Notes under the pieces: generated by a model
What the model was told of the DNA's origin: nothing
The model's database searches: none
What the model saw: only the letters and a program-made list of their open reading frames with translations
From: a virus
Taxonomy: Duplodnaviria; Heunggongvirae; Uroviricota; Caudoviricetes
Virus record (IMG/VR): IMGVR_UViG_2648501669_000018
Location: 1 to 11,456 of that record
Length of the DNA: 11,456 nt
Strand: one strand, 5' to 3'
Part shown: positions 1-11,456 of the stretch, one piece after another
Layout: the number at the start of each line of letters is the position of its first letter
How positions within the stretch are numbered: position 1 is the first letter of the stretch
Program-made: the position numbers and the translations under genes

Positions 1-34
1 AAATATAGGGGCAAATCCAGAAAGTTCACCAGCC

Positions 35-77
35 AACCGCAGCACGTTCTTGCATACGACGTGCTGCGGTTTTCTTT
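35..77 (+). terminator. Rho-independent terminator (perfect 11-bp stem + T-run) ending an upstream plus-strand transcript
   Basis: Stem 37-47 ccgcagcacgt pairs perfectly with 59-69 acgtgctgcgg (11-nt loop), followed directly by ttttcttt at 70-77. A degenerate copy of the same ~40-bp module sits exactly 2700 bp downstream at 2731-2770. Confidence 0.6.
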
Positions 78-228
78 ATGATTTATGCACAATGGACAAT
101 TTGAAATTATTGATGATTGTATGGTGCATCGTTTTCTGAACCTACACTGATTTTTTGGTATAGCCTTGCCTAGCCAGTCTTACCGGATCAAACTCTTCGC
201 TATTGCAATACTAACCAAAATCATCAAT

Positions 229-257
229 TTGACAGCGATTAACCAGAATAATAGTAT
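229..257 (+). promoter_or_regulatory. Candidate sigma70 promoter for the diguanylate cyclase gene
   Basis: TTGACA at 229-234 (consensus -35), 17-bp spacer, TAGTAT at 252-257 (-10-like), in an AT-rich leader about 70 bp upstream of the ATG at 330. Motif match only. Confidence 0.3.
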
Positions 258-329
258 ACTATCACCAGTAAGAAATTATCGTTATTTGTAGCGATACATA
301 TTATATATATATCATTCTCAGGTGCGTAC

Positions 330-1661
330 ATGATTATCAAGCAGGTACCTATAAAAATAAAAATCTTCATCTTTTTATTTTCATGCATCTCTATTATATT
401 TTTGTTACTGCATGAAAATAATGGAATATACATAACACAAACAACACAAATAAGTTATAGTGTTTTCATTATTGGGCTTTTTTTCATAAACCTGATGATT
501 TTTATTTTTCTATTGCTTTACTATGTTTCTAATCAGAGACAAAGTTATCTCTTAATTCTTTCATTCGCGTTTTTGAGCAACACGTATTATTTATTAGAAG
601 TGGCTATTATTTCTTTATCTCCGTTAGGTAACGATTTATCTACAATCTATCAGAAATCAAATGATATCGCAATATATTATCTATTCCGTCAGTTCAGCTT
701 TATATCTATAATCTTTCTGGCTGTTTATTCCACCAATGTTAAAAATAAAAGTGTTTTAGAAGATAAAAGAAACATAATAATTGTTGTTTTGTCAATATTA
801 ATTCTTTTTATTACTCCGTTTGTAGCAAAAAATCTAAGCAGTGACAATATAAAATATAGTCTTAATATTATACAATACTCGCTGAATCGTCATTTGTCGA
901 CGTGGAATATCGTGTACACCAAAATAATATCAGTATTTTGGCTTGTATTACTTATCAGCTCATGCATCAGCATACGTAATTACTCAAAAATATGGTTGTG
1001 TATAATACTTATTAGTATAGTGTCAGTATGCAATAATCTAATTTTATTGTATTTTATTGATAAATCCCATCCTGCATGGTACATGACAAAATTTCTTGAA
1101 TTGATATCAATGATTTATATCATTTCAACACTCATGTATTATGTTTTCAGGAAATTAAATCATGCTAATCATATGGCAATTCATGATCCACTAACGAATA
1201 CATACAATAGAAGATACTTTATTGACTCATTGAAGAATATATCAAAACACCATGATTTCTCAGTAATAATGTTAGATATTGACAATTTCAAAAGCATCAA
1301 TGACAAATGGGGGCATCATATGGGTGATCAAGTCATAGTAATGGTTACCAGAATAATAAAAAAATCCATCAGGAAAGAGGATATATTAGGGCGCTTAGGC
1401 GGTGAGGAGTTCGGTATTATCATTAAAGGTAATACTCAAAAGCTCTTGCTATCAATTGCAGAGCGAATCAGAAAAAACATTGAAGAGCAATGCTCGGAAA
1501 AATTATTATCGCATGGACCTGAGAAAATAACTGTCAGTATTGGTTGCTTTACTTCAAAAGAGAATAATCTCAGTCCATCTGAAATGTTAGTCAATGCCGA
1601 TAAAGCGTTATATCAAGCCAAAAGAACCGGAAAAAACAAGGTGATAACTCACTCAAAATAA
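330..1661 (+). CDS. Membrane-anchored GGDEF-domain diguanylate cyclase (c-di-GMP synthase); possibly the prophage-associated dgcX
   Basis: 443-aa ORF with SD-like AGGTG at 319-323, 6 nt before the ATG. N-terminal ~270 aa is very hydrophobic with multiple predicted TM helices. C-terminus is a canonical GGDEF domain: DPLTNTYNRRYF, MLDIDNFKSINDKWGHHMGD (Asp at the base-specifying position, so GTP/c-di-GMP type), active site GGEEF, and an RxxD I-site (RKED) 5 residues upstream of GGEEF. The gene is strikingly AT-rich compared with the flanking tail genes, indicating foreign origin. Confidence 0.9.
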   Translation: MIIKQVPIKIKIFIFLFSCISIIFLLLHENNGIYITQTTQISYSVFIIGLFFINLMIFIFLLLYYVSNQRQSYLLILSFAFLSNTYYLLEVAIISLSPLGNDLSTIYQKSNDIAIYYLFRQFSFISIIFLAVYSTNVKNKSVLEDKRNIIIVVLSILILFITPFVAKNLSSDNIKYSLNIIQYSLNRHLSTWNIVYTKIISVFWLVLLISSCISIRNYSKIWLCIILISIVSVCNNLILLYFIDKSHPAWYMTKFLELISMIYIISTLMYYVFRKLNHANHMAIHDPLTNTYNRRYFIDSLKNISKHHDFSVIMLDIDNFKSINDKWGHHMGDQVIVMVTRIIKKSIRKEDILGRLGGEEFGIIIKGNTQKLLLSIAERIRKNIEEQCSEKLLSHGPEKITVSIGCFTSKENNLSPSEMLVNADKALYQAKRTGKNKVITHSK

Positions 1662-1690
1662 ACACCTTTTTAAAATACAGCCCCAATAAA

Positions 1691-1723
1691 CTGCAGAATA
1701 TTATCCCATATAATATCCTGCAG
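1691..1723. terminator. Imperfect inverted repeat between convergent genes; possible weak bidirectional terminator
   Basis: ctgcagaatatta (1691-1703) and taatatcctgcag (1711-1723) form a 13-bp stem with one mismatch. It lies between the cyclase stop (1661) and the tfa-relic stop (1735). On the minus strand it is followed by TTTATT. The stem is AT-rich and so of low stability. Confidence 0.25.
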
Positions 1724-1734
1724 TTCGTAATGCA

Positions 1735-2004
1735 CTATTCGATAATGGGTCCTGTTGGCCATTCAATATCCGGTGCAGTTGTTGTATTAACACGGTTCAG
1801 CAACACCCGATACTTCTTCCAGGCTTCCAGCAACGAGTTTTCTTCCTCCGTTGCGATCTCCAGATCTACAGCATCCTGAAGTGGCGCAATATGCTCACTG
1901 AATTCCTGGATGTAGAACTATGTGGTGACGGTCTTCCAGCCATTCGGCTCCTGCTGTATCGAAGCATACCAGGCTATTTCAATATCGCTATGCTGCGGCA
2001 GCAT
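1735..2004 (-). pseudogene. tfa: Tail fibre assembly (tfa) gene remnant, 3' portion with in-frame TAG
   Basis: Minus-strand translation gives ...[54 protein letters not shown], matching the C-terminus of lambda-type Tfa as I recall it. The 60-codon block (1738-1917) has no start codon and is preceded by an in-frame TAG (1918-1920). A short ATG-initiated stretch (from 2004) upstream is in the same frame. It is about 90% identical at nucleotide level to the second copy at 2806-2915. Confidence 0.7.
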
Positions 2005-2012
2005 TTAACCCC

Positions 2013-2041
2013 TTGTAATTCATCACCATAATTGATTTAAT
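2013..2041 (+). promoter_or_regulatory. Candidate sigma70 promoter (extended -10) for the methyltransferase gene
   Basis: TTGTAA at 2013-2018, 17-bp spacer, TGaTTTAAT at 2033-2041 (TGn extended -10 plus TTTAAT). The ATG at 2061 lacks a clear Shine-Dalgarno, so the transcript may have a very short leader. Confidence 0.25.
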
Positions 2042-2060
2042 TCACAAACAAAACTATAAC

Positions 2061-2729
2061 ATGGTGAAATTAATGAAAAAAAACACAGATGATGGGGCTA
2101 AAATTTACACACCACTTACCCTAAAGCTTTATGACTGGTGGGTTTTGGGAGTATCAAATCGGCTTGCATGGGGATGTCCTACAAAGGAACACCTTCTTCC
2201 ACACTTTCTGGAACATTTAGGTAACAACCATCTGGATATTGGTGTTGGAACTGGGTTTTACCTTACTCACGTACCTGAGAGTAGTCTGATATCTTTAATG
2301 GATTTGAACGAAGCTAGCCTGAACGCGGCATCTACAAGGGCTGGGGAATCAAAAATTAAACATAAAATTAGCCATGATGTTTTTGAACCTTATCCCGCGG
2401 CGTTACATGGTCAATTTGATTCCATTTCCATGTTTTACCTTCTTCACTGCCTGCCTGGAAATATATCTACAAAAAGCTGTGTAATACGCAATGCGGCGCA
2501 GGCCTTAACTGACGATGGAACTCTATACGGAGCCACAATTCTTGGCGATGGAGTTGTGCACAATAGCTTCGGTCAAAAACTGATGCGCATTTACAATCAG
2601 AAAGGCATCTTTTCAAACACAAAAGATTCCGAAGAAGGCTTAACACATATACTCTCAGAGCATTTCGAGAATGTTAAAACCAAGGTTCAAGGTACTGTAG
2701 TAATGTTTTCCGCTTCAGGGAAAAAATAG
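2061..2729 (+). CDS. Putative class I SAM-dependent methyltransferase (cargo gene, substrate unknown)
   Basis: 222-aa ORF. Motif I-like glycine-rich loop LDIGVGTGFY, followed by an acidic motif (ISLMDLNE) and a hydrophobic FDSISMFYLLHCLPG stretch, consistent with a Rossmann-fold methyltransferase. No convincing SD; an alternative start is the ATG at 2073 (MKKNTDD). Intermediate AT content and orientation opposite to the tail genes. Confidence 0.5.
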   Translation: MVKLMKKNTDDGAKIYTPLTLKLYDWWVLGVSNRLAWGCPTKEHLLPHFLEHLGNNHLDIGVGTGFYLTHVPESSLISLMDLNEASLNAASTRAGESKIKHKISHDVFEPYPAALHGQFDSISMFYLLHCLPGNISTKSCVIRNAAQALTDDGTLYGATILGDGVVHNSFGQKLMRIYNQKGIFSNTKDSEEGLTHILSEHFENVKTKVQGTVVMFSASGKK

Positions 2730-2730
2730 C

Positions 2731-2770
2731 ATCCAACCGCAGCTCGCTCTTGCTTAAGACGTGCTGCGGC
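2731..2770 (+). repeat. Degenerate second copy of the terminator hairpin module seen at 31-70
   Basis: atccaaccgcagctcgctcttgcttaagacgtgctgcggc aligns base-for-base with 31-70. The stem is reduced to 7 bp plus 2 and the T-run is replaced by cataatcc. It starts 2 nt after the methyltransferase stop. Confidence 0.6.
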
Positions 2771-2783
2771 ATAATCCCAATGA

Positions 2784-2966
2784 TTACTCCCTGACAGGGT
2801 TCGTAGGCCACTCAATATCAGGTGCAGTTGATGTATCAACACGGTTCAGCAACACCCGATACTTCTTCCAGACTTCCAGCAACAAGGTTTCTTCCTCCGT
2901 TGCGATTTCCAGCTCAACAACAGTCTGAACGTACCAGGAACAGCCTCCTTCAGGGCTTGAAGGATA
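2784..2966 (-). pseudogene. tfa: Tail fibre assembly (tfa) remnant (C-terminal 60 codons, no start codon)
   Basis: Minus-strand translation, immediately after and in frame with the stf TGA: [60 protein letters not shown]. No ATG/GTG/TTG start. An orphan strong SD (GAAGGAGG, minus strand, about 2941-2948) is followed by no start codon, consistent with a destroyed tfa initiation region. Confidence 0.7.
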
Positions 2967-5900
2967 TCAATGTTCGCTTCCTGTTAACTGCCCGACAAGT
3001 GCAACCAGTTCGCTTACCTGATTTTCCAGAGTGGTGATCCGGGTGCCTGCTGTTGCCAGATTTTCACGTAACGTTGTATTTTCCTCTTCCAGCGCGGTAA
3101 CGCGATCATCTGTTTCACGGGCGACCTGAACAAGTAACCCCGTCACGGCGGAGTAGTCAACATTAAGATAGCGAGTTTCTTCGCGTAGCTCGTTGCCGTC
3201 AACGGTCGGACCTTGCAACTCTTCACCATAATGAGTAAACGATCCCACAGCTTCAGGTATCGCCTCCATTACTTCCTGTGCAATAACGCCAGCATAAGGC
3301 ATTCCGTTTTCCTTGAGCGTGTAGGTGTACCCGTTCATTTTACGGATTGCTTTCGTAGCGTCGCTGATAACGCGAATATCGTCTTTAAGGTCGCGGTCTG
3401 ATGACTGATTCAGCGTTGTGCAATTAATAGCGCCATTTACATCAAACAACTGGCCTGCTGATGTTTTTTGCGCATAAAACAGATACGCAGCAGACGTTCC
3501 AACCTCAAAAACGTTTTGTCGATCACTTGATCCCCATACTTTTGCGGCAAATGATAGTTCTGTATTACCTAAGTTCTGTAAAACAAAACGATTTCCAGTC
3601 CCTGTTTGTTTTGTAAGAGTTAAATCAACAGTTGAGTTAACCTCATCCTTGTTGATAGTGAGCGCCTGTGCTTTAGCCCCGTTAACAGCACCTGTTTTGA
3701 GTTGAACCGCGCCGTCATTACCATTTAACAGTATCTCAGCTCCGCTAAAGAAATTTTTTAGCGACAGCATCTTACTTACGCCGACTGATGAACCCAACGC
3801 CCACGCGAGAGAATTACCGGTGCTATCAAACCCACGTACAAAGCAATCCATTTTGCTATAGTCTGACGTGCTTCCAAGGACATCAATTCGCCCTCCGCCA
3901 GATTTTACCGGGTTAGATGTGGTTAATGACCTGACAGCAAGATCGGTAGATGAATTGAGATCGTCTACTGTTAGTAATTTCTTCCATTCCTGCGTCGTTC
4001 CATTTTCAATTGTTCTTCCCCAAAAACCGGAATTGCGGCCTCCGAACTGCACAGCATAATTTTTACTAAATTGAACATGAATGCCGCCAAGAACCATAGA
4101 ACCTGCCGGGCCGTTTGTACTGCCTGCAATTGGTATAAATTTATTAATGTTATCAGTATGCTGCGTGTTCCAGTCTCGTCCTGTTTTTGTAAGCAGTCCT
4201 AATGTCGTGTCGAGCGCTTCGGTTAAAGTAAGGTTTTTAAATTTAACTGCGCTACTTTCGCCAAGACTTAAGTTGTTTCGCGCATCTTCTACTGTTGTCG
4301 CACCTGTACCTCCTTGCCCAACAGCTAATGGCAACCAGCCAGTGCCATTATGACAACCCCACAAACCAGATTTGGAAACCTGTAAGCGTGGTGCGCCTGA
4401 AGAATACGTAGAATATACGTAAGTTGTTTCTTTTCCCTCTTCAACCCTTTCTGTTGATACATCTCTCTTCCATTCAGACCAGGTACCGCTTCCTCCTTCA
4501 TATATTCGTCTATAAGTAATTCCCGGATTATTATAAGGGTAGTACACCTGAACGCAGGAAGAAGCAGTGTTGGCTCTCGTTTGGAGCACTATTAAAGCGC
4601 CCGCCAGACCGATTGGGTAATTTAATTCTTCTGTTGCGTAAGCGCTCGTTGGTTGTTGATAGAAACCAGAATATTCACCGGTAAGGGTGTTTAGGTCAGT
4701 ATTAGCAAGGCCAGCTTTTTGCTCATACATTACCCGCAAGTTCGCACGTGCTTGCTCGATAGTTCTTCCACCAGTACCGCCCTGGGCTAAACCTAACGGA
4801 GACCATTGTCCAGAAGAAGAATCATAAACTCCCCAACTCCCGTTAGTATGGATTTCAAAGAAACGATCACCAGTTGGACCATACATACGAGTTGTTGATT
4901 CATTTTGACCAAAGCGGCTTAATTCATCTCTGCGGGTATGACGTATCCATTGCGGGCCAGAACTTTGGCTGTAAATGTACGAATACAATGATTTTGTATC
5001 TGAACCAACAAATAGACCGGAATATCTTTTTGTTGACACTTCTGATCTAACTATATAACCAGAAATAAGATTATCACCGGCACTAGACGCTACTGATGGA
5101 TAACCTTTCGCTGAGATGTAAATCCTGACAAATCCAATATAACCTGATGGCTCAACAGAGATATCAGTGCAGGTCATGGCAACTTCACCAAGACCGATAT
5201 TATCGCCAACAATTACTTGCGCCTGGTTGCGATAATTAAGTGCGTCCGCCGCAGATTTCGCCGCGTTTGTTTCACTGGATTTAGCATTAGTTTCGCTGGC
5301 TTTAGCGTTGGTTTCGCTGCTCTTTGCTGCTGCCTCGCTATTTTTCGCGTTGGTTTCTGATTTTTTGGCTGCTGTCGCGGAGTTTGCCGATGCAGTTTGT
5401 GAGTCTGCTGCCGCCTGTGCGCTGTTATCCGCATTCGTCTCAGACGTTTTTGCGGCCTTCGCGGAATTTCCTGCCGCCGTTGCCGAGGAAGCTGCACTAC
5501 TGGCACTTGATGATGCGTTCGTTTCTGATGATTTCGCTGCCTCTTTTGAGGCCGCCGCATCCCGGGCTGAGGTGGCAGCTTCTGACGCTTTCGTGGTCGC
5601 GGTGGATGCAGAAGTGGCTGCTGATTGTTGTGATGCTGCGGCATTCGTTTCTGACGTTTTCGCCGCACCGGCACTGGTGGCTGCCGCGCTTTTTGAGGAC
5701 TCTGCAGCGGCAGCACTTTTTGATGCTTCAGTAGCCTTTGTTGATGCCGTTCCTGCGCTGGAAGACGCTGACTGAGCCGACGTCGCGGCCTGCCCGGCTG
5801 ATGTGCTGGCTGCACGTGCTGAGCCTGTAGCATCAGTCGCATGGGTTGCCGCCTCACGGGCTGATGTGCTGGCATCGCTGGCTGACTTCTTCGCGGCTGC

Positions 5901-6272
5901 CGTGTTCTGTGCCACTGCGGACGCGTTACGCGCCACCTCTTCCACCATCAGTTCAAAGCGGCGCAGTGCCTCCGGACGGGCATCATCCTCCGTCATGGCA
6001 CCGAGAAAATCATTCAGCGTACCCGGTTGTGAGTCTTCATACACGGTGATGGTCCCGGCATGCGATGGCGGGAAGCCTTCCACCAACAGAATAACGCTGT
6101 ACTGACCGTACTCAACATCCATGCTGTAACGCCCGGCTTCATCCGGATTTTCAGATGCCACCGTGTTCACCACCACCGTGGTGCTGTTACGTTTTGCTTT
6201 CAGCTGGATTGTGCAGTTCTGTACCGGTTTACCTGCACCGTCTTTCAGTACACCTGAAATCTTTACTGCCAT
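2967..6272 (-). CDS. stf: Side tail fibre protein (lambda Stf-like N-terminus; C-terminal intramolecular chaperone domain)
   Basis: The N-terminus MAVKISGVLKDGAGKPVQNCTIQLKAKRNSTTVVVNTVASENPDEAGRYSMDVEYGQYSV... closely matches lambda Stf as I recall it. The ORF track starts at a GTG (6278); the ATG at 6272 (MAVKIS) is the likelier start. It contains a long Ala/Ser/Thr-rich repeat region, two GQGGTG fibre-repeat motifs and a C-terminal S74-type chaperone domain. Stop TGA at 2967-2969. Confidence 0.9.
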   Translation of the reverse strand: MAVKISGVLKDGAGKPVQNCTIQLKAKRNSTTVVVNTVASENPDEAGRYSMDVEYGQYSVILLVEGFPPSHAGTITVYEDSQPGTLNDFLGAMTEDDARPEALRRFELMVEEVARNASAVAQNTAAAKKSASDASTSAREAATHATDATGSARAASTSAGQAATSAQSASSSAGTASTKATEASKSAAAAESSKSAAATSAGAAKTSETNAAASQQSAATSASTATTKASEAATSARDAAASKEAAKSSETNASSSASSAASSATAAGNSAKAAKTSETNADNSAQAAADSQTASANSATAAKKSETNAKNSEAAAKSSETNAKASETNAKSSETNAAKSAADALNYRNQAQVIVGDNIGLGEVAMTCTDISVEPSGYIGFVRIYISAKGYPSVASSAGDNLISGYIVRSEVSTKRYSGLFVGSDTKSLYSYIYSQSSGPQWIRHTRRDELSRFGQNESTTRMYGPTGDRFFEIHTNGSWGVYDSSSGQWSPLGLAQGGTGGRTIEQARANLRVMYEQKAGLANTDLNTLTGEYSGFYQQPTSAYATEELNYPIGLAGALIVLQTRANTASSCVQVYYPYNNPGITYRRIYEGGSGTWSEWKRDVSTERVEEGKETTYVYSTYSSGAPRLQVSKSGLWGCHNGTGWLPLAVGQGGTGATTVEDARNNLSLGESSAVKFKNLTLTEALDTTLGLLTKTGRDWNTQHTDNINKFIPIAGSTNGPAGSMVLGGIHVQFSKNYAVQFGGRNSGFWGRTIENGTTQEWKKLLTVDDLNSSTDLAVRSLTTSNPVKSGGGRIDVLGSTSDYSKMDCFVRGFDSTGNSLAWALGSSVGVSKMLSLKNFFSGAEILLNGNDGAVQLKTGAVNGAKAQALTINKDEVNSTVDLTLTKQTGTGNRFVLQNLGNTELSFAAKVWGSSDRQNVFEVGTSAAYLFYAQKTSAGQLFDVNGAINCTTLNQSSDRDLKDDIRVISDATKAIRKMNGYTYTLKENGMPYAGVIAQEVMEAIPEAVGSFTHYGEELQGPTVDGNELREETRYLNVDYSAVTGLLVQVARETDDRVTALEEENTTLRENLATAGTRITTLENQVSELVALVGQLTGSEH
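2970..3401 (-). other. C-terminal intramolecular chaperone / auto-processing domain (peptidase S74-like) of the tail fibre
   Basis: Last ~144 aa: SDRDLKDDIRVISDATKAIRKMNGYTYTLKENG...GVIAQEVMEAIPEAV...coiled-coil tail. This matches the hallmark S-D-x-x-L-K cleavage motif and the GYxY / IAQE core of chaperone domains in endosialidase and T5 L-shaped fibre proteins (recalled from family knowledge). Confidence 0.7.
5216..5906 (-). repeat. Low-complexity Ala/Ser/Thr-rich repeat region inside stf (K-S/T-SETNA-type repeats)
   Basis: Protein segment of about residues 125-355 is almost entirely A/S/T/K/E with reiterated ...KSSETNA... units. The DNA shows reiterated gcgttggtttcgct-like units. This compositional bias creates several spurious overlapping ORFs on both strands. 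Confidence 0.75.
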
Positions 6273-6283
6273 ATTCACCCCAC

Positions 6284-6309
6284 AAAAAAGCCCGCCTGAA
6301 CCGGCGGGC
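6284..6309 (-). terminator. Rho-independent terminator downstream of lom (minus strand)
   Basis: Minus strand reads AGCCCGCC-ggttca-GGCGGGCT followed by TTTTTT (plus-strand aaaaaa at 6284-6289). The stf start codon lies only about 12 nt beyond the T-run. Confidence 0.6.
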
Positions 6310-6336
6310 TGTCATAACACTGTGTTACCTGGCTAA

Positions 6337-6936
6337 TCAGAATTTATAACCGACACCCATGATGAAACCGTCAGTGCGCCAGTCACCACTGCCGGAGCCT
6401 TCATAAGCAATATCAATGGCCACCGATTCGGTCGGGTTAAACTGCACGCCAGCTCCCCACGCCAGAGACGTGTTACTGTGGCGAGCGTCATCACTTCCGG
6501 TCAGCACATCGTGCGTTTTCCCCTTGTTGTCAGTTACGCGGAGATAATCCCCGGAGAAAGTCGACACACGGCTGTAAGCCACACCCGCCATCGCATACGC
6601 GCTGAACCATTCATTCACGCGTACAGACGGCCCCGCCATCACGCTGAACCAGCGGTTACGAACGGAGTCTTCATGCCAGCGGGTATCGCTGTAACGGGTC
6701 AGCTGGCGATTCTTGTCTCCTGCATAGCTGAATGACGTCACCAGCCCCAGTGTGTCCGTAAACTCATAACGGTATTTCACGTTAATCCCGTTAAGATCAT
6801 CGCTGCCGGGAACGTTCGTCGAGGCATGAAGATAGCCCGCGCTCAGCGTGGACTGATGTTCAGACGCCCATGCAGGCGCACCGGATACGGCCAGACAGAT
6901 GGCTGCGGACAAAATGGCGGCATAAAGTTTACGCAT
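6337..6936 (-). CDS. lom: Lom-family (Ail/Lom/PagC) outer membrane beta-barrel protein
   Basis: 199 aa with signal peptide MRKLYAAILSAAICLAVSGAPAWA. The core GINVKYRYE and the C-terminal AIDIAYEGSGSGDWRTDGFIMGVGYKF closely match lambda Lom as recalled. SD GAGAGG 6 nt upstream of the ATG. Position between J and stf is as in lambda. Confidence 0.9.
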   Translation of the reverse strand: MRKLYAAILSAAICLAVSGAPAWASEHQSTLSAGYLHASTNVPGSDDLNGINVKYRYEFTDTLGLVTSFSYAGDKNRQLTRYSDTRWHEDSVRNRWFSVMAGPSVRVNEWFSAYAMAGVAYSRVSTFSGDYLRVTDNKGKTHDVLTGSDDARHSNTSLAWGAGVQFNPTESVAIDIAYEGSGSGDWRTDGFIMGVGYKF

Positions 6937-6958
6937 AATTACCTCTCGCTTTTCTGCA

Positions 6959-6984
6959 ATAAAAAAGGCGTCATTTCTGACGCC
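6959..6984 (-). terminator. Rho-independent terminator between J and lom (minus strand)
   Basis: Minus strand: GGCGTCA-gaaa-TGACGCC followed by TTTTTTAT, located 19 nt after the J stop (7003-7005) and just upstream of the lom SD. Confidence 0.6.
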
Positions 6985-7002
6985 CGTTCTGGGTTATAAA
7001 AT

Positions 7003-10404
<3,402 letters not shown>

Positions 10405-10461
10405 TCACGCTCCATAAACGACAAAACCGCCCGCAGGCGGTTTCACATAAAACATTTTTCA

Positions 10462-11133
10462 TCAGCGACCAATCACCACAACCTGACCACCATCACCTTC
10501 ATCTGCCGTGCTGATCTCCTGAGAAACCACCCGCGACCCCACGCGCATTTCACCGTACAGAACAGGCAAAACATTGCCCTGGGCAACCATGTTATCCAGT
10601 GAGGAGAAATAGGTGTTCTGCTTACCGTTATCCGTTGTCTGTGTACGGGGAGTTCTGGCTTTCGGTGCCAGCATCTGCGCCACACCACCGAGCACCATAC
10701 TGGCACCGAGAGAAAACAGGATGCCGGTCATACCACCGGCCCCAATGGCTGCCCCCCATGCTGCAAGGGTGGCTCCGGCGGTAAAGAATGATCCGGCAAT
10801 GGCGGCAGCCCCCAGGACAATCTGGAATACGCCACCTGACTTGGCCCCGGCGACTCTGGGAACAATATGAATCACAGCGCCATCAGGCAGAGTCTCATGT
10901 AACTGCGCCGTTAACCCGGACGTGCTGACGTCCCGCCCGGCAATCCGTACCTGATACCAGCCGTCGCTCAGTTTCTGACGAAACGCCGGGAGCTGTGTGG
11001 CCAGTGCCCGGATGGCTTCAGCCCCCGTTTTCACACGAAGGTCGATGCGGCGACCAAATCGTTGTAAATCCCCGTAAAGGCAGATGCGCGCCATGCCCGG
11101 TGACGCCAGAGGGAGTGTGTGCGTCGCTGCCAT
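10462..11133 (-). CDS. I: Tail tip assembly protein I
   Basis: 223 aa starting MAATHTLPLASPGMARICLYGDLQRFGRR..., with a Gly/Ala-rich hydrophobic centre, matching lambda I in sequence and length. SD GAGAGG upstream. The 60-nt gap to J and ~103-nt overlap with K are as in lambda. Confidence 0.93.
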   Translation of the reverse strand: MAATHTLPLASPGMARICLYGDLQRFGRRIDLRVKTGAEAIRALATQLPAFRQKLSDGWYQVRIAGRDVSTSGLTAQLHETLPDGAVIHIVPRVAGAKSGGVFQIVLGAAAIAGSFFTAGATLAAWGAAIGAGGMTGILFSLGASMVLGGVAQMLAPKARTPRTQTTDNGKQNTYFSSLDNMVAQGNVLPVLYGEMRVGSRVVSQEISTADEGDGGQVVVIGR

Positions 11134-11456
11134 TTGTCTGTATACCTCTCTCGTTTGCTCAGTTGTTCAGGAATATGGTGCAGCAGCTCGCCATCACCAC
11201 AGTAAATGGCGGCATGATTCGGCACCGATGAACCAAAACAGCACAGCAGCACATCGCCCGGTTGTGCTGATGACAACGGCACCTGATACAGCCCTGTGGC
11301 CTCCAGATTATCCAGATAGAGATTCTGGCCGTTACGCCACCAGTCATCCTCACGATGAAAGTCCGGCATCTCAATCCCCGCCAGATGATAAGCATCCCGG
11401 AACAGTGTGTAACAGTCCGTCACACCGTGCTCAAAGCGCCGCCCGGTGAGATGCGG
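11031..11456 (-). CDS. K: Tail assembly protein K, 5'-truncated by the window edge (NlpC/P60-like C-terminal part)
   Basis: The reading frame stays open to the window end (...PHLTGRRFEHG-VTDCYTLFRDAYHLAGIEMPDF...). The track's start at 11423 is an internal GTG, not the true start. Contains a Cys...His motif typical of NlpC/P60-type tail assembly proteins. Overlaps I as in lambda. Confidence 0.85.
   Translation of the reverse strand, partial: PHLTGRRFEHGVTDCYTLFRDAYHLAGIEMPDFHREDDWWRNGQNLYLDNLEATGLYQVPLSSAQPGDVLLCCFGSSVPNHAAIYCGDGELLHHIPEQLSKRERYTDKWQRRTHSLWRHRAWRASAFTGIYNDLVAASTFV

Follow-up and report, generated by a model that had tools for sequence, protein, structure and literature searches.

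How is a side tail fibre folded when the gene for its assembly chaperone, tfa, has been reduced to a stub? The question is raised by an 11,456-nucleotide (nt) stretch of DNA, positions 1 to 11,456 of the IMG/VR virus record IMGVR_UViG_2648501669_000018, which we call the window. This stretch, the right arm of a lambda-like prophage, has the minus-strand gene order I, J, lom, stf; stf, which encodes the side tail fibre protein Stf, is followed by the remains of tfa. An initial annotation, made from the letters of the sequence, had proposed that Stf carries its own self-cleaving chaperone domain and that a module of fibre tip plus chaperone had recombined inside an ancestral tfa. Our analysis makes it very probable that Stf is a self-chaperoned mosaic fibre of the S74 type, that the tfa behind it is a pseudogene, and that the two were joined in a single event which then spread. 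The arrangement is common and already annotated, and is not new.

A chaperone domain at the C-terminus of Stf

S74 intramolecular chaperones are a textbook feature of phage fibres. Two features of the window concern us here:

2967-6272, minus strand: stf, side tail fibre gene; ATG at 6270-6272, 1101 codons plus TGA (the mechanical open reading frame (ORF) is 2967-6278, with a GTG start at 6278 and 1103 codons)
2970-3401, minus strand: S74 intramolecular chaperone domain of Stf, residues 960-1103 (144 residues), with a long C-terminal helix (Pfam PF13884, profile, fold)

The start codon of stf is likely the ATG at 6270-6272, as in lambda. The residue numbers used throughout (Ser960, Lys965 and so on) follow the 1103-codon ORF, and residue 959 is residue 957 when counted from the ATG.

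We found that Pfam Peptidase_S74 (PF13884) matched residues 960-1011 with an E value of 1.7e-13 and a score of 51.1 bits, against a cut-off of 22. The matched segment opens with the motif SDRDLK, which holds the catalytic S-x4-K dyad (Ser960, codon 3399-3401; Lys965, codon 3384-3386); the Ser codon is also where the interval 2784-3401 of the minus strand begins, which ends with the stop codon of the tfa stub. When residues 930-1103 were used to query 1.84 billion cluster representatives, 5197 relatives were obtained at E<=1e-3, and in the best 150 listed of these 5197 the match mostly ended no more than ~15 residues from the C-terminus of the protein. The domain of Stf likewise occupies the extreme C-terminus (960-1103 of 1103). 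Across an alignment of 41 relatives, down to 28% identity, Lys965 was invariant, and Ser960 and Asp961 were conserved in at least 90%. A profile built from the 41 relatives matched, in the PDB, the S16 gp37 chaperone (6f45, 8e-24), with SDRDLK aligned to SSDRRIK, the ICA domain of MyRF (7dc3, 7.5e-13) and a further fibre (8jov).

The predicted fold pointed in the same direction. An AlphaFold2 monomer model of residues 930-1103 reached a predicted local distance difference test (pLDDT) score of 90.4, with strands at model positions 82-93 and 102-111 and a helix at 113-171. Foldseek against the PDB at E<0.01 returned only two entries, 7dc3 (best, E 1.4e-5) and 3gw6, the K1F endosialidase 'Intramolecular Chaperone', at template modelling scores (TM-scores) of only ~0.4 in a comparison made on the monomer model. 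Since sequence, catalytic residues, position and fold concur, membership of the Stf C-terminus in the S74 family is established at the level of sequence and model, which bears out the initial annotation on this point.

By analogy with K1F endosialidase, the T5 L-shaped fibre and S16 gp37, three chaperone domains would trimerise via their long C-terminal helices, and the resulting trimer would nucleate folding of the fibre tip from the C-terminal end of the tip. Autocleavage by Ser960 and Lys965, which we infer from the same analogy, would then cut before Ser960, so that the mature fibre would consist of 959 residues (957 counted from the ATG) and have the tip at its C-terminus. Self-chaperoning of this kind would make a separate Tfa unnecessary.

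The tfa relic and the spacer

Between stf and the end of the former tfa lie two features:

2930-2966, minus strand: 37-nt spacer that separates the tfa relic from the stop of stf, containing GAAGGAGG (no tfa match past 2929)
2784-2929, minus strand: tfa relic of 47-48 codons (2929 down to 2787), equivalent to lambda Tfa 147-194, plus the stop at 2784-2786, in the stf frame (blastn, tblastn, Caudo_TAP)

Beyond the TGA stop of stf (2967-2969), its reading frame continues through 60 codons without interruption to the stop at 2784-2786. These had been described as 60 codons of tfa C-terminus without a start codon. The open frame is as described, with no ATG or GTG anywhere within the 60 codons, but only 47-48 of them are tfa. 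Alignment of 2784-2966 to tfa, which had been put forward as a way to find the deletion junction, did locate it: the blastn match to lambda tfa begins at 2929, which is codon 147 of lambda Tfa, and intact tfa matches in two large searches all ended at or before that position. The relic is ~80% identical in amino acids (aa) to lambda Tfa and matches Caudo_TAP (PF02413) over profile positions 87-130 of 131 (E 2.5e-19). We found no intact tfa ORF in the interval; the sole in-frame TTG (2883-2885) gives a mechanical ORF of 33 aa, but this codon is not kept in other relic copies.

In Tfa a variable N-terminal domain binds the protein's own fibre tip, and a conserved C-terminal helical domain trimerises (PMC9608196). 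Judged by its alignment, the relic is the conserved C-terminal domain only, and the fibre-binding N-terminal domain has been lost: codons 1-146 are gone, and what is left is not a full-length two-domain Tfa with a start codon. On this reading of the sequence the downstream tfa is a pseudogene. The Prokaryotic Genome Annotation Pipeline (PGAP) makes the same call on Escherichia coli RMDEC332, where the relic is a partial pseudogene, 'tail fiber assembly protein, incomplete, missing N-terminus', and in other related genomes. The stub shares the stf frame and is parted from it by the TGA alone, probably a coincidence with a chance of 1 in 3.

The spacer contains the motif GAAGGAGG (2943-2950, minus strand), which had been described as an orphan strong Shine-Dalgarno sequence with no start codon behind it. 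The motif is present, and there is indeed no ATG, GTG or TTG 5-13 nt downstream of it; as a ribosome-binding site, however, it found no support. In a 7-bp inverted repeat, TCCTTCA/TGAAGGA, it supplies the 3' arm, and the fold of that repeat is not significant (z -1.27). The heptamer AAGGAGG occurs three times on the minus strand, twice within stf, where 0.85 copies are expected, and at least three copies appeared in 13 of 200 shuffles; the motif is therefore unremarkable. Given the missing start, the two further copies in stf and its place as half of a weak inverted repeat, we rejected it both as a ribosome-binding site and as the trace of a lost gene. As to the source of the spacer, a distant blastn search against phages yielded one marginal match (E 4e-4), located where an unrelated gene of a Morganella phage ends, which we judged to be chance, and an exact-pattern scan of IMG/VR found no spacer outside the context of S74 domain and relic, save in one contig that has lost stf (locus L045, described below).

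One junction in many genomes

Of 5426 complete E. coli genomes, 788, about one in seven, covered at least 80% of a 471-nt query that spans the junction. The chaperone segment alone was found in 803 of the same 5426, which means that the junction accompanies this allele in about 98% of its carriers. It also occurs in three lambdoid phages that have been cultured (mEp460, Ayreon and PhiR70_1). The stf stop, the spacer and the start of the relic were identical in all seven loci that we aligned, namely those of the window, of the three phages and of E. coli, the last represented by two genomes and one draft contig. Among them is a genome (L015) that keeps the junction although its chaperone DNA has only 86.5% identity and its stf stop is TAA. 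Among 50 IMG/VR contigs that contain the spacer, the upstream chaperone end was the same in 49 and the start of the relic was the same in all 50.

Distant S74 fibres presented a different picture. In two of them (loci L006 and L007, 75-80% DNA identity), one from a metagenomic lambdoid phage, where it lies beside the integrase, and one from an O157:H7 contig, the fibre stop is followed by a rho-independent terminator, and there is no tfa remnant. Read from these sequences, the simplest history is that a tip-plus-chaperone module was joined illegitimately into tfa at codon 147, once and long ago, and then spread, because the junction is identical across loci, the stub starts abruptly at codon 147 and the distant S74 fibres are free of a relic. 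The proposed swap inside the ancestral tfa is upheld by the abrupt stub and the relic-free relatives. The join, consisting of stop codon, 37 nt and tfa codon 147, would have been made once by illegitimate recombination and then inherited and passed on; the sequences point to homologous recombination for the later spread.

What did not hold up was the view of the arrangement as unusual, given its frequency in E. coli, its presence in the three cultured phages and its existing annotation. RefSeq names such fibres 'prophage tail fiber N-terminal domain and S74 family peptidase domain-containing protein' and flags the stub as a partial tfa. In the literature on lambdoid Stf with an intramolecular chaperone, and in that on mEp460, we found no description of the present arrangement.

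The spacer-bearing contig that lacks the upstream chaperone end (L045; IMG/VR UViG_2908572912_000001, minus strand, ~3740) has the whole of stf deleted, from the lom codon at …GINVKY to the spacer, with ATAT microhomology. A truncated lom is there fused in frame to the spacer and the tfa stub.

A mosaic fibre in a lambda-type locus

The genes upstream of the junction and the remaining parts of Stf are as follows:

10462-11133, minus strand: tail assembly gene I (ORF list and Pfam)
7003-10401, minus strand: J (ORF list and Pfam)
6337-6936, minus strand: lom (ORF list and Pfam)
5871-6272, minus strand: N-terminal tail-attachment domain of Stf, ORF residues 3-136 (Pfam PF08400 phage_tail_N, E 3e-72, profile positions 1-134 of 134)
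5244-5870, minus strand: Ala/Ser/Thr-rich repetitive shaft, about residues 137-345, common to lambda and mEp460 (sequence reading, BLASTP, direct repeats D3, D4 and D13)
4254-4688, minus strand: pyocin-knob-like middle region, residues 531-675, unlike mEp460 (PDB 6cl5, a tail fibre protein, E 2.3e-6)
3402-4250, minus strand: distal tip, residues 677-959, which presumably binds the receptor; 89% identity to the tip of mEp460

The closest complete genome, E. coli RMDEC332, is 98.5% identical over window positions 20-6400, and there the matching region adjoins ybhB-bioA, the bio side of att-lambda. We identify the locus as that of the side tail fibre in a lambda-like prophage at att-lambda. At its N-terminus the protein is of the lambda type: it has the phage_tail_N domain, its gene comes after J and lom, by BLASTP it shares 87% identity with lambda Stf over the first 284 aa, and it matches the N-terminus of the lambda tail fibre in the PDB (9e7m, E 8e-52). 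Its C-terminal part is not. We detected no similarity of the distal ~800 residues of Stf to lambda Stf (orf-314; best E 2.5), and the lambda-type C-terminal receptor-binding region that needs Tfa is absent from Stf. Because of this dissimilarity, it is a fair inference that the receptor would differ from that of lambda.

The DNA match to mEp460 is broken over window positions 4185-5129 (Stf residues ~383-698), with 89-99% identity at both ends, and by these comparisons Stf is a mosaic of at least three segments. The middle stretch 4185-5129 comprises the pyocin-knob-like part and two copies of a GGTG..T.E.AR.NL motif. An AlphaFold model of residues 686-1103 from a 27-sequence alignment was unusable for the fold of the tip (pLDDT 43), and an NCBIfam search gave no match for Stf.

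The stub as a proposed site of exchange

In its right half the relic is a pronounced mosaic: the 50 IMG/VR copies encode 36 different peptides, among which there are at least 10 distinct C-terminal ends of Tfa type as well as several allelic patches in the interior. The frame of the relic is open in 47 of these copies, frameshifted in one and interrupted by an early stop in two. What lies downstream depends on the locus: a methyltransferase cassette (in the window, phage ev243 and E. coli MRSN346638), pinQ, DinI/integrase, SMODS-SLATT or IS3. Three E. coli prophages whose fibre tip and relic are those of the window (L008-L010) have SMODS, SLATT_4 and pP_pnuc, defence-like cargo, 700-3000 nt past the relic, in the position held by the methyltransferase and cyclase genes of the window. 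In E. coli L37 (L014, 3607-4420), as in many genomes, the same S74 fibre and relic stand at the Qin position beside pinQ, which encodes a DNA invertase; no obvious invertible alternative tip is seen at the L37 locus.

Partners for recombination with the stub are abundant. We found tfa 3' sequence in 4830 of 5426 complete E. coli genomes, at a median of two places in each, and De Paepe et al. 2014 recovered, experimentally, recombinants of lambda with the Rac prophage formed within a 95% identical tfa region (PMC3945230). The stub would then survive as a short sequence that is continually overwritten from intact tfa genes and would serve as the right-hand homology arm of the tip module. Near-identical to intact tfa 3' ends elsewhere, it may keep acting as a crossover point by which the tip module becomes linked to varied cargo. 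Selection for such a role is possible. In a wider form, the idea would make the ~140-nt tfa end with its hairpin a maintained joint of lambdoid prophages, against which tip modules are shuffled with cargo and defence cassettes; we regard this as doubtful. We are just as hesitant about its companion claim, that the segment was kept after its chaperone function became obsolete since lineages that have it can exchange modules.

Cargo genes, a second relic and three hairpins

Beyond the junction, the window contains:

2730-2769, no strand assigned: hairpin found behind tfa in lambda-like phages, here flanked by stf/relic and the methyltransferase, which converge on it (repeat D2; -25.5 kcal/mol, z -1.97; aligned with the lambda and mEp460 post-tfa hairpins)
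2061-2729, plus strand: class I S-adenosylmethionine (SAM)-dependent methyltransferase, cargo between the relics (Pfam Methyltransf_12/23/25)
1735-1911, minus strand: second, longer tfa relic, lambda Tfa 137-194 plus stop (tblastn; Caudo_TAP E 2.4e-24; PGAP partial tfa)
1684-1723, no strand assigned: hairpin after the second relic (fold z -6.4)
330-1661, plus strand: MASE4-GGDEF diguanylate cyclase, DgcX-like, cargo (Pfam GGDEF E 9.5e-45, MASE4 E 1.8e-35)
30-69, no strand assigned: outermost of the three post-tfa hairpins, bordering the cargo region on its outer side (repeat D2; fold z -5.2)

The hairpin at 2730-2769 is likely a bidirectional terminator, because it sits between convergent genes; a consensus terminator scan did not call it. 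The second relic is 89% identical to the first (repeat D1). A 22-nt match upstream of it (2011-2032 against 3211-3232, 'YGDELQG') suggested a second scrap of S74 sequence, but an S74 hidden Markov model (HMM) search and blastn both came back empty, and we put the match down to chance.

An NCBIfam search gave no match for the methyltransferase. The architecture of the cyclase, its RxxD I-site and its position at att-lambda fit DgcX by its description, in which DgcX was suggested to be flanking DNA picked up by specialised transduction (PMC4287979). From the sequence, the cyclase of the window looks like a moron within the prophage and not like flanking DNA outside attR, because in mEp460 the sequence directly after the relic is that of window 20-77, the region of the outermost hairpin. 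The two stubs in direct repeat and the three hairpins, set around two plus-strand cargo genes, look like successive captures of cassettes at the tfa end. If the tfa end were a maintained joint, these hairpins and relics would be the footprint of those captures.

Two of the phages differ from the window in this region. Ayreon (L004, 2501-2504) lacks the methyltransferase ORF by a clean deletion (window 2035-2693), with ~27 nt before and the last 36 nt kept. Phage ev243 (L005, 3505-4221) has another fibre module, then two short ORFs without annotation, of 92 and 97 aa, which may encode chaperones of that module, and a tfa stub that is 25 nt shorter; after the stub it has the same methyltransferase cassette and second stub as the window.

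Alternative explanations

The fibre might still need Tfa, supplied in trans by another prophage, if the S74 domain were insufficient and loss of the cis copy were tolerated thanks to other tfa genes. Such genes are plentiful, to judge from the tfa 3' ends at a median of two places in each of the 4830 genomes, and the K-12 hosts of mEp460 and Ayreon carry tfa in cryptic prophages, with tfaQ and tfaR among our search matches. The N-terminal domain of Tfa is, however, specific for its own tip (PMC9608196), and the present tip is unrelated to lambda-type tips. Distant relatives of the module, moreover, are the last gene before a terminator and have no chaperone gene nearby. Fibres known to bear S74 domains, K1F endosialidase and T5 pb1 (3gw6, 4UW8), fold without a separate Tfa. 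We consider dependence on a foreign Tfa quite improbable. The relic itself might be alive, encoding either a 33-aa peptide from the TTG at 2885 or, by read-through of the stf stop, an extension of the chaperone that adds a Tfa-type trimerisation helix. GGAGG does lie 8 nt upstream of that TTG, the mechanical ORF exists, the relic is in the stf frame and is open in 47 of 50 copies, and Tfa C-terminal domains share a helical-bundle architecture with intramolecular chaperones (PMC9608196). Yet the TTG is a Leu codon of tfa that is TTA or CTG in other relic alleles (L008, L012), and the GGAGG belongs to the Thr-Glu-Glu codons of every intact tfa. Read-through fares no better: L015 ends stf with TAA instead of TGA, a shared frame arises by chance in one case in three, and the product would ride on a fragment that is cleaved off and discarded. 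A living relic thus seems hardly credible. Equally hard to believe is a recurrent hot spot, at which many independent swaps broke tfa at one place. Truncation of tfa near the start of its conserved C-terminal domain has occurred at least twice, and in ev243 the other fibre module is joined to a tfa relic cut within 25 nt of the same position. For the S74 module, in contrast, the spacer and first bases of the relic are the same in the seven loci and in 49 of the 50 IMG/VR contigs, the fiftieth being the stf deletion that keeps the spacer, and independent illegitimate events are not expected to create the same 37-nt filler anew.

Some observations nevertheless weigh against a self-chaperoned Stf joined once to a dead tfa. 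For this fibre, cleavage, trimerisation and incorporation into the virion are predictions. The altered receptor is argued from dissimilarity to lambda only, and the tip model reached a pLDDT of 43. Open frames in 47 of 50 relics are more than naive decay predicts, a discrepancy that can be explained by the shortness of the relic and repeated conversion from intact tfa alleles. The complete genome of mEp460 holds no other tfa besides the stub, which is suggestive, but only suggestive, of a dispensable Tfa; the cryptic-prophage tfa genes of laboratory hosts might in principle act in trans. More weight falls on the autonomy of known S74-bearing fibres, on the tip specificity of Tfa N-terminal domains and on the relatives that have no relic. 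Nor does the viability of mEp460, Ayreon and PhiR70_1 prove a working fibre, because lambda forms plaques even without its side fibres (PMC3945230).

Implications

As a discovery the arrangement matters little, the exact fibre and junction being present in cultured phages and hundreds of RefSeq genomes. For lambda-based particles that display the present class of tip, a cognate tfa should not be needed. The 47-codon stub can be annotated as a pseudogene and shows annotators where the fibre module ends. Its mosaic right side and the repeated stub-hairpin units around the cargo genes illustrate a conserved gene end as a recombination joint of prophages.

Comparison with known systems

In K1F endosialidase (3GW6), the T5 L-shaped fibre pb1 (4UW8) and S16 gp37 (6F45), the chaperone likewise stands at the extreme C-terminus of a trimeric fibre. 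Stf shares with these members of S74 (MEROPS/Pfam) the S-x4-K motif and, in its model, the beta-hairpin 'tentacle' and long helix. Identity to the K1F domain is low (13-15% in the Foldseek alignment), and the client differs, as the Stf chaperone would serve a lambda-type side fibre tip; cleavage in Stf is proposed by analogy with these systems. The best structural match, the ICA domain of MyRF (7DC3), is a eukaryotic homologue from a membrane-bound transcription factor, and bears only on confirmation of the fold family.

The closest systems are the cultured phages mEp460 (JQ182728), Ayreon (MF807953) and PhiR70_1 (PV340577), in which the gene order J, lom, stf and the tip with its S74 domain are as in the window. 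Stf of mEp460 is 89% identical in amino acids over the last 425 residues, with an identical junction of stop, spacer and relic, whereas the middle of its fibre (about residues 360-677) is a different allele. After the relic the window has the methyltransferase and DgcX-like cyclase cassettes; in mEp460 DinI/integrase follow directly. With lambda Stf/Tfa (Ur-lambda) and with Mu-type Tfa, the locus has in common the fibre N-terminus, the 3' end of tfa and the post-tfa hairpin; it does not share the fibre's distal half or tfa codons 1-146.

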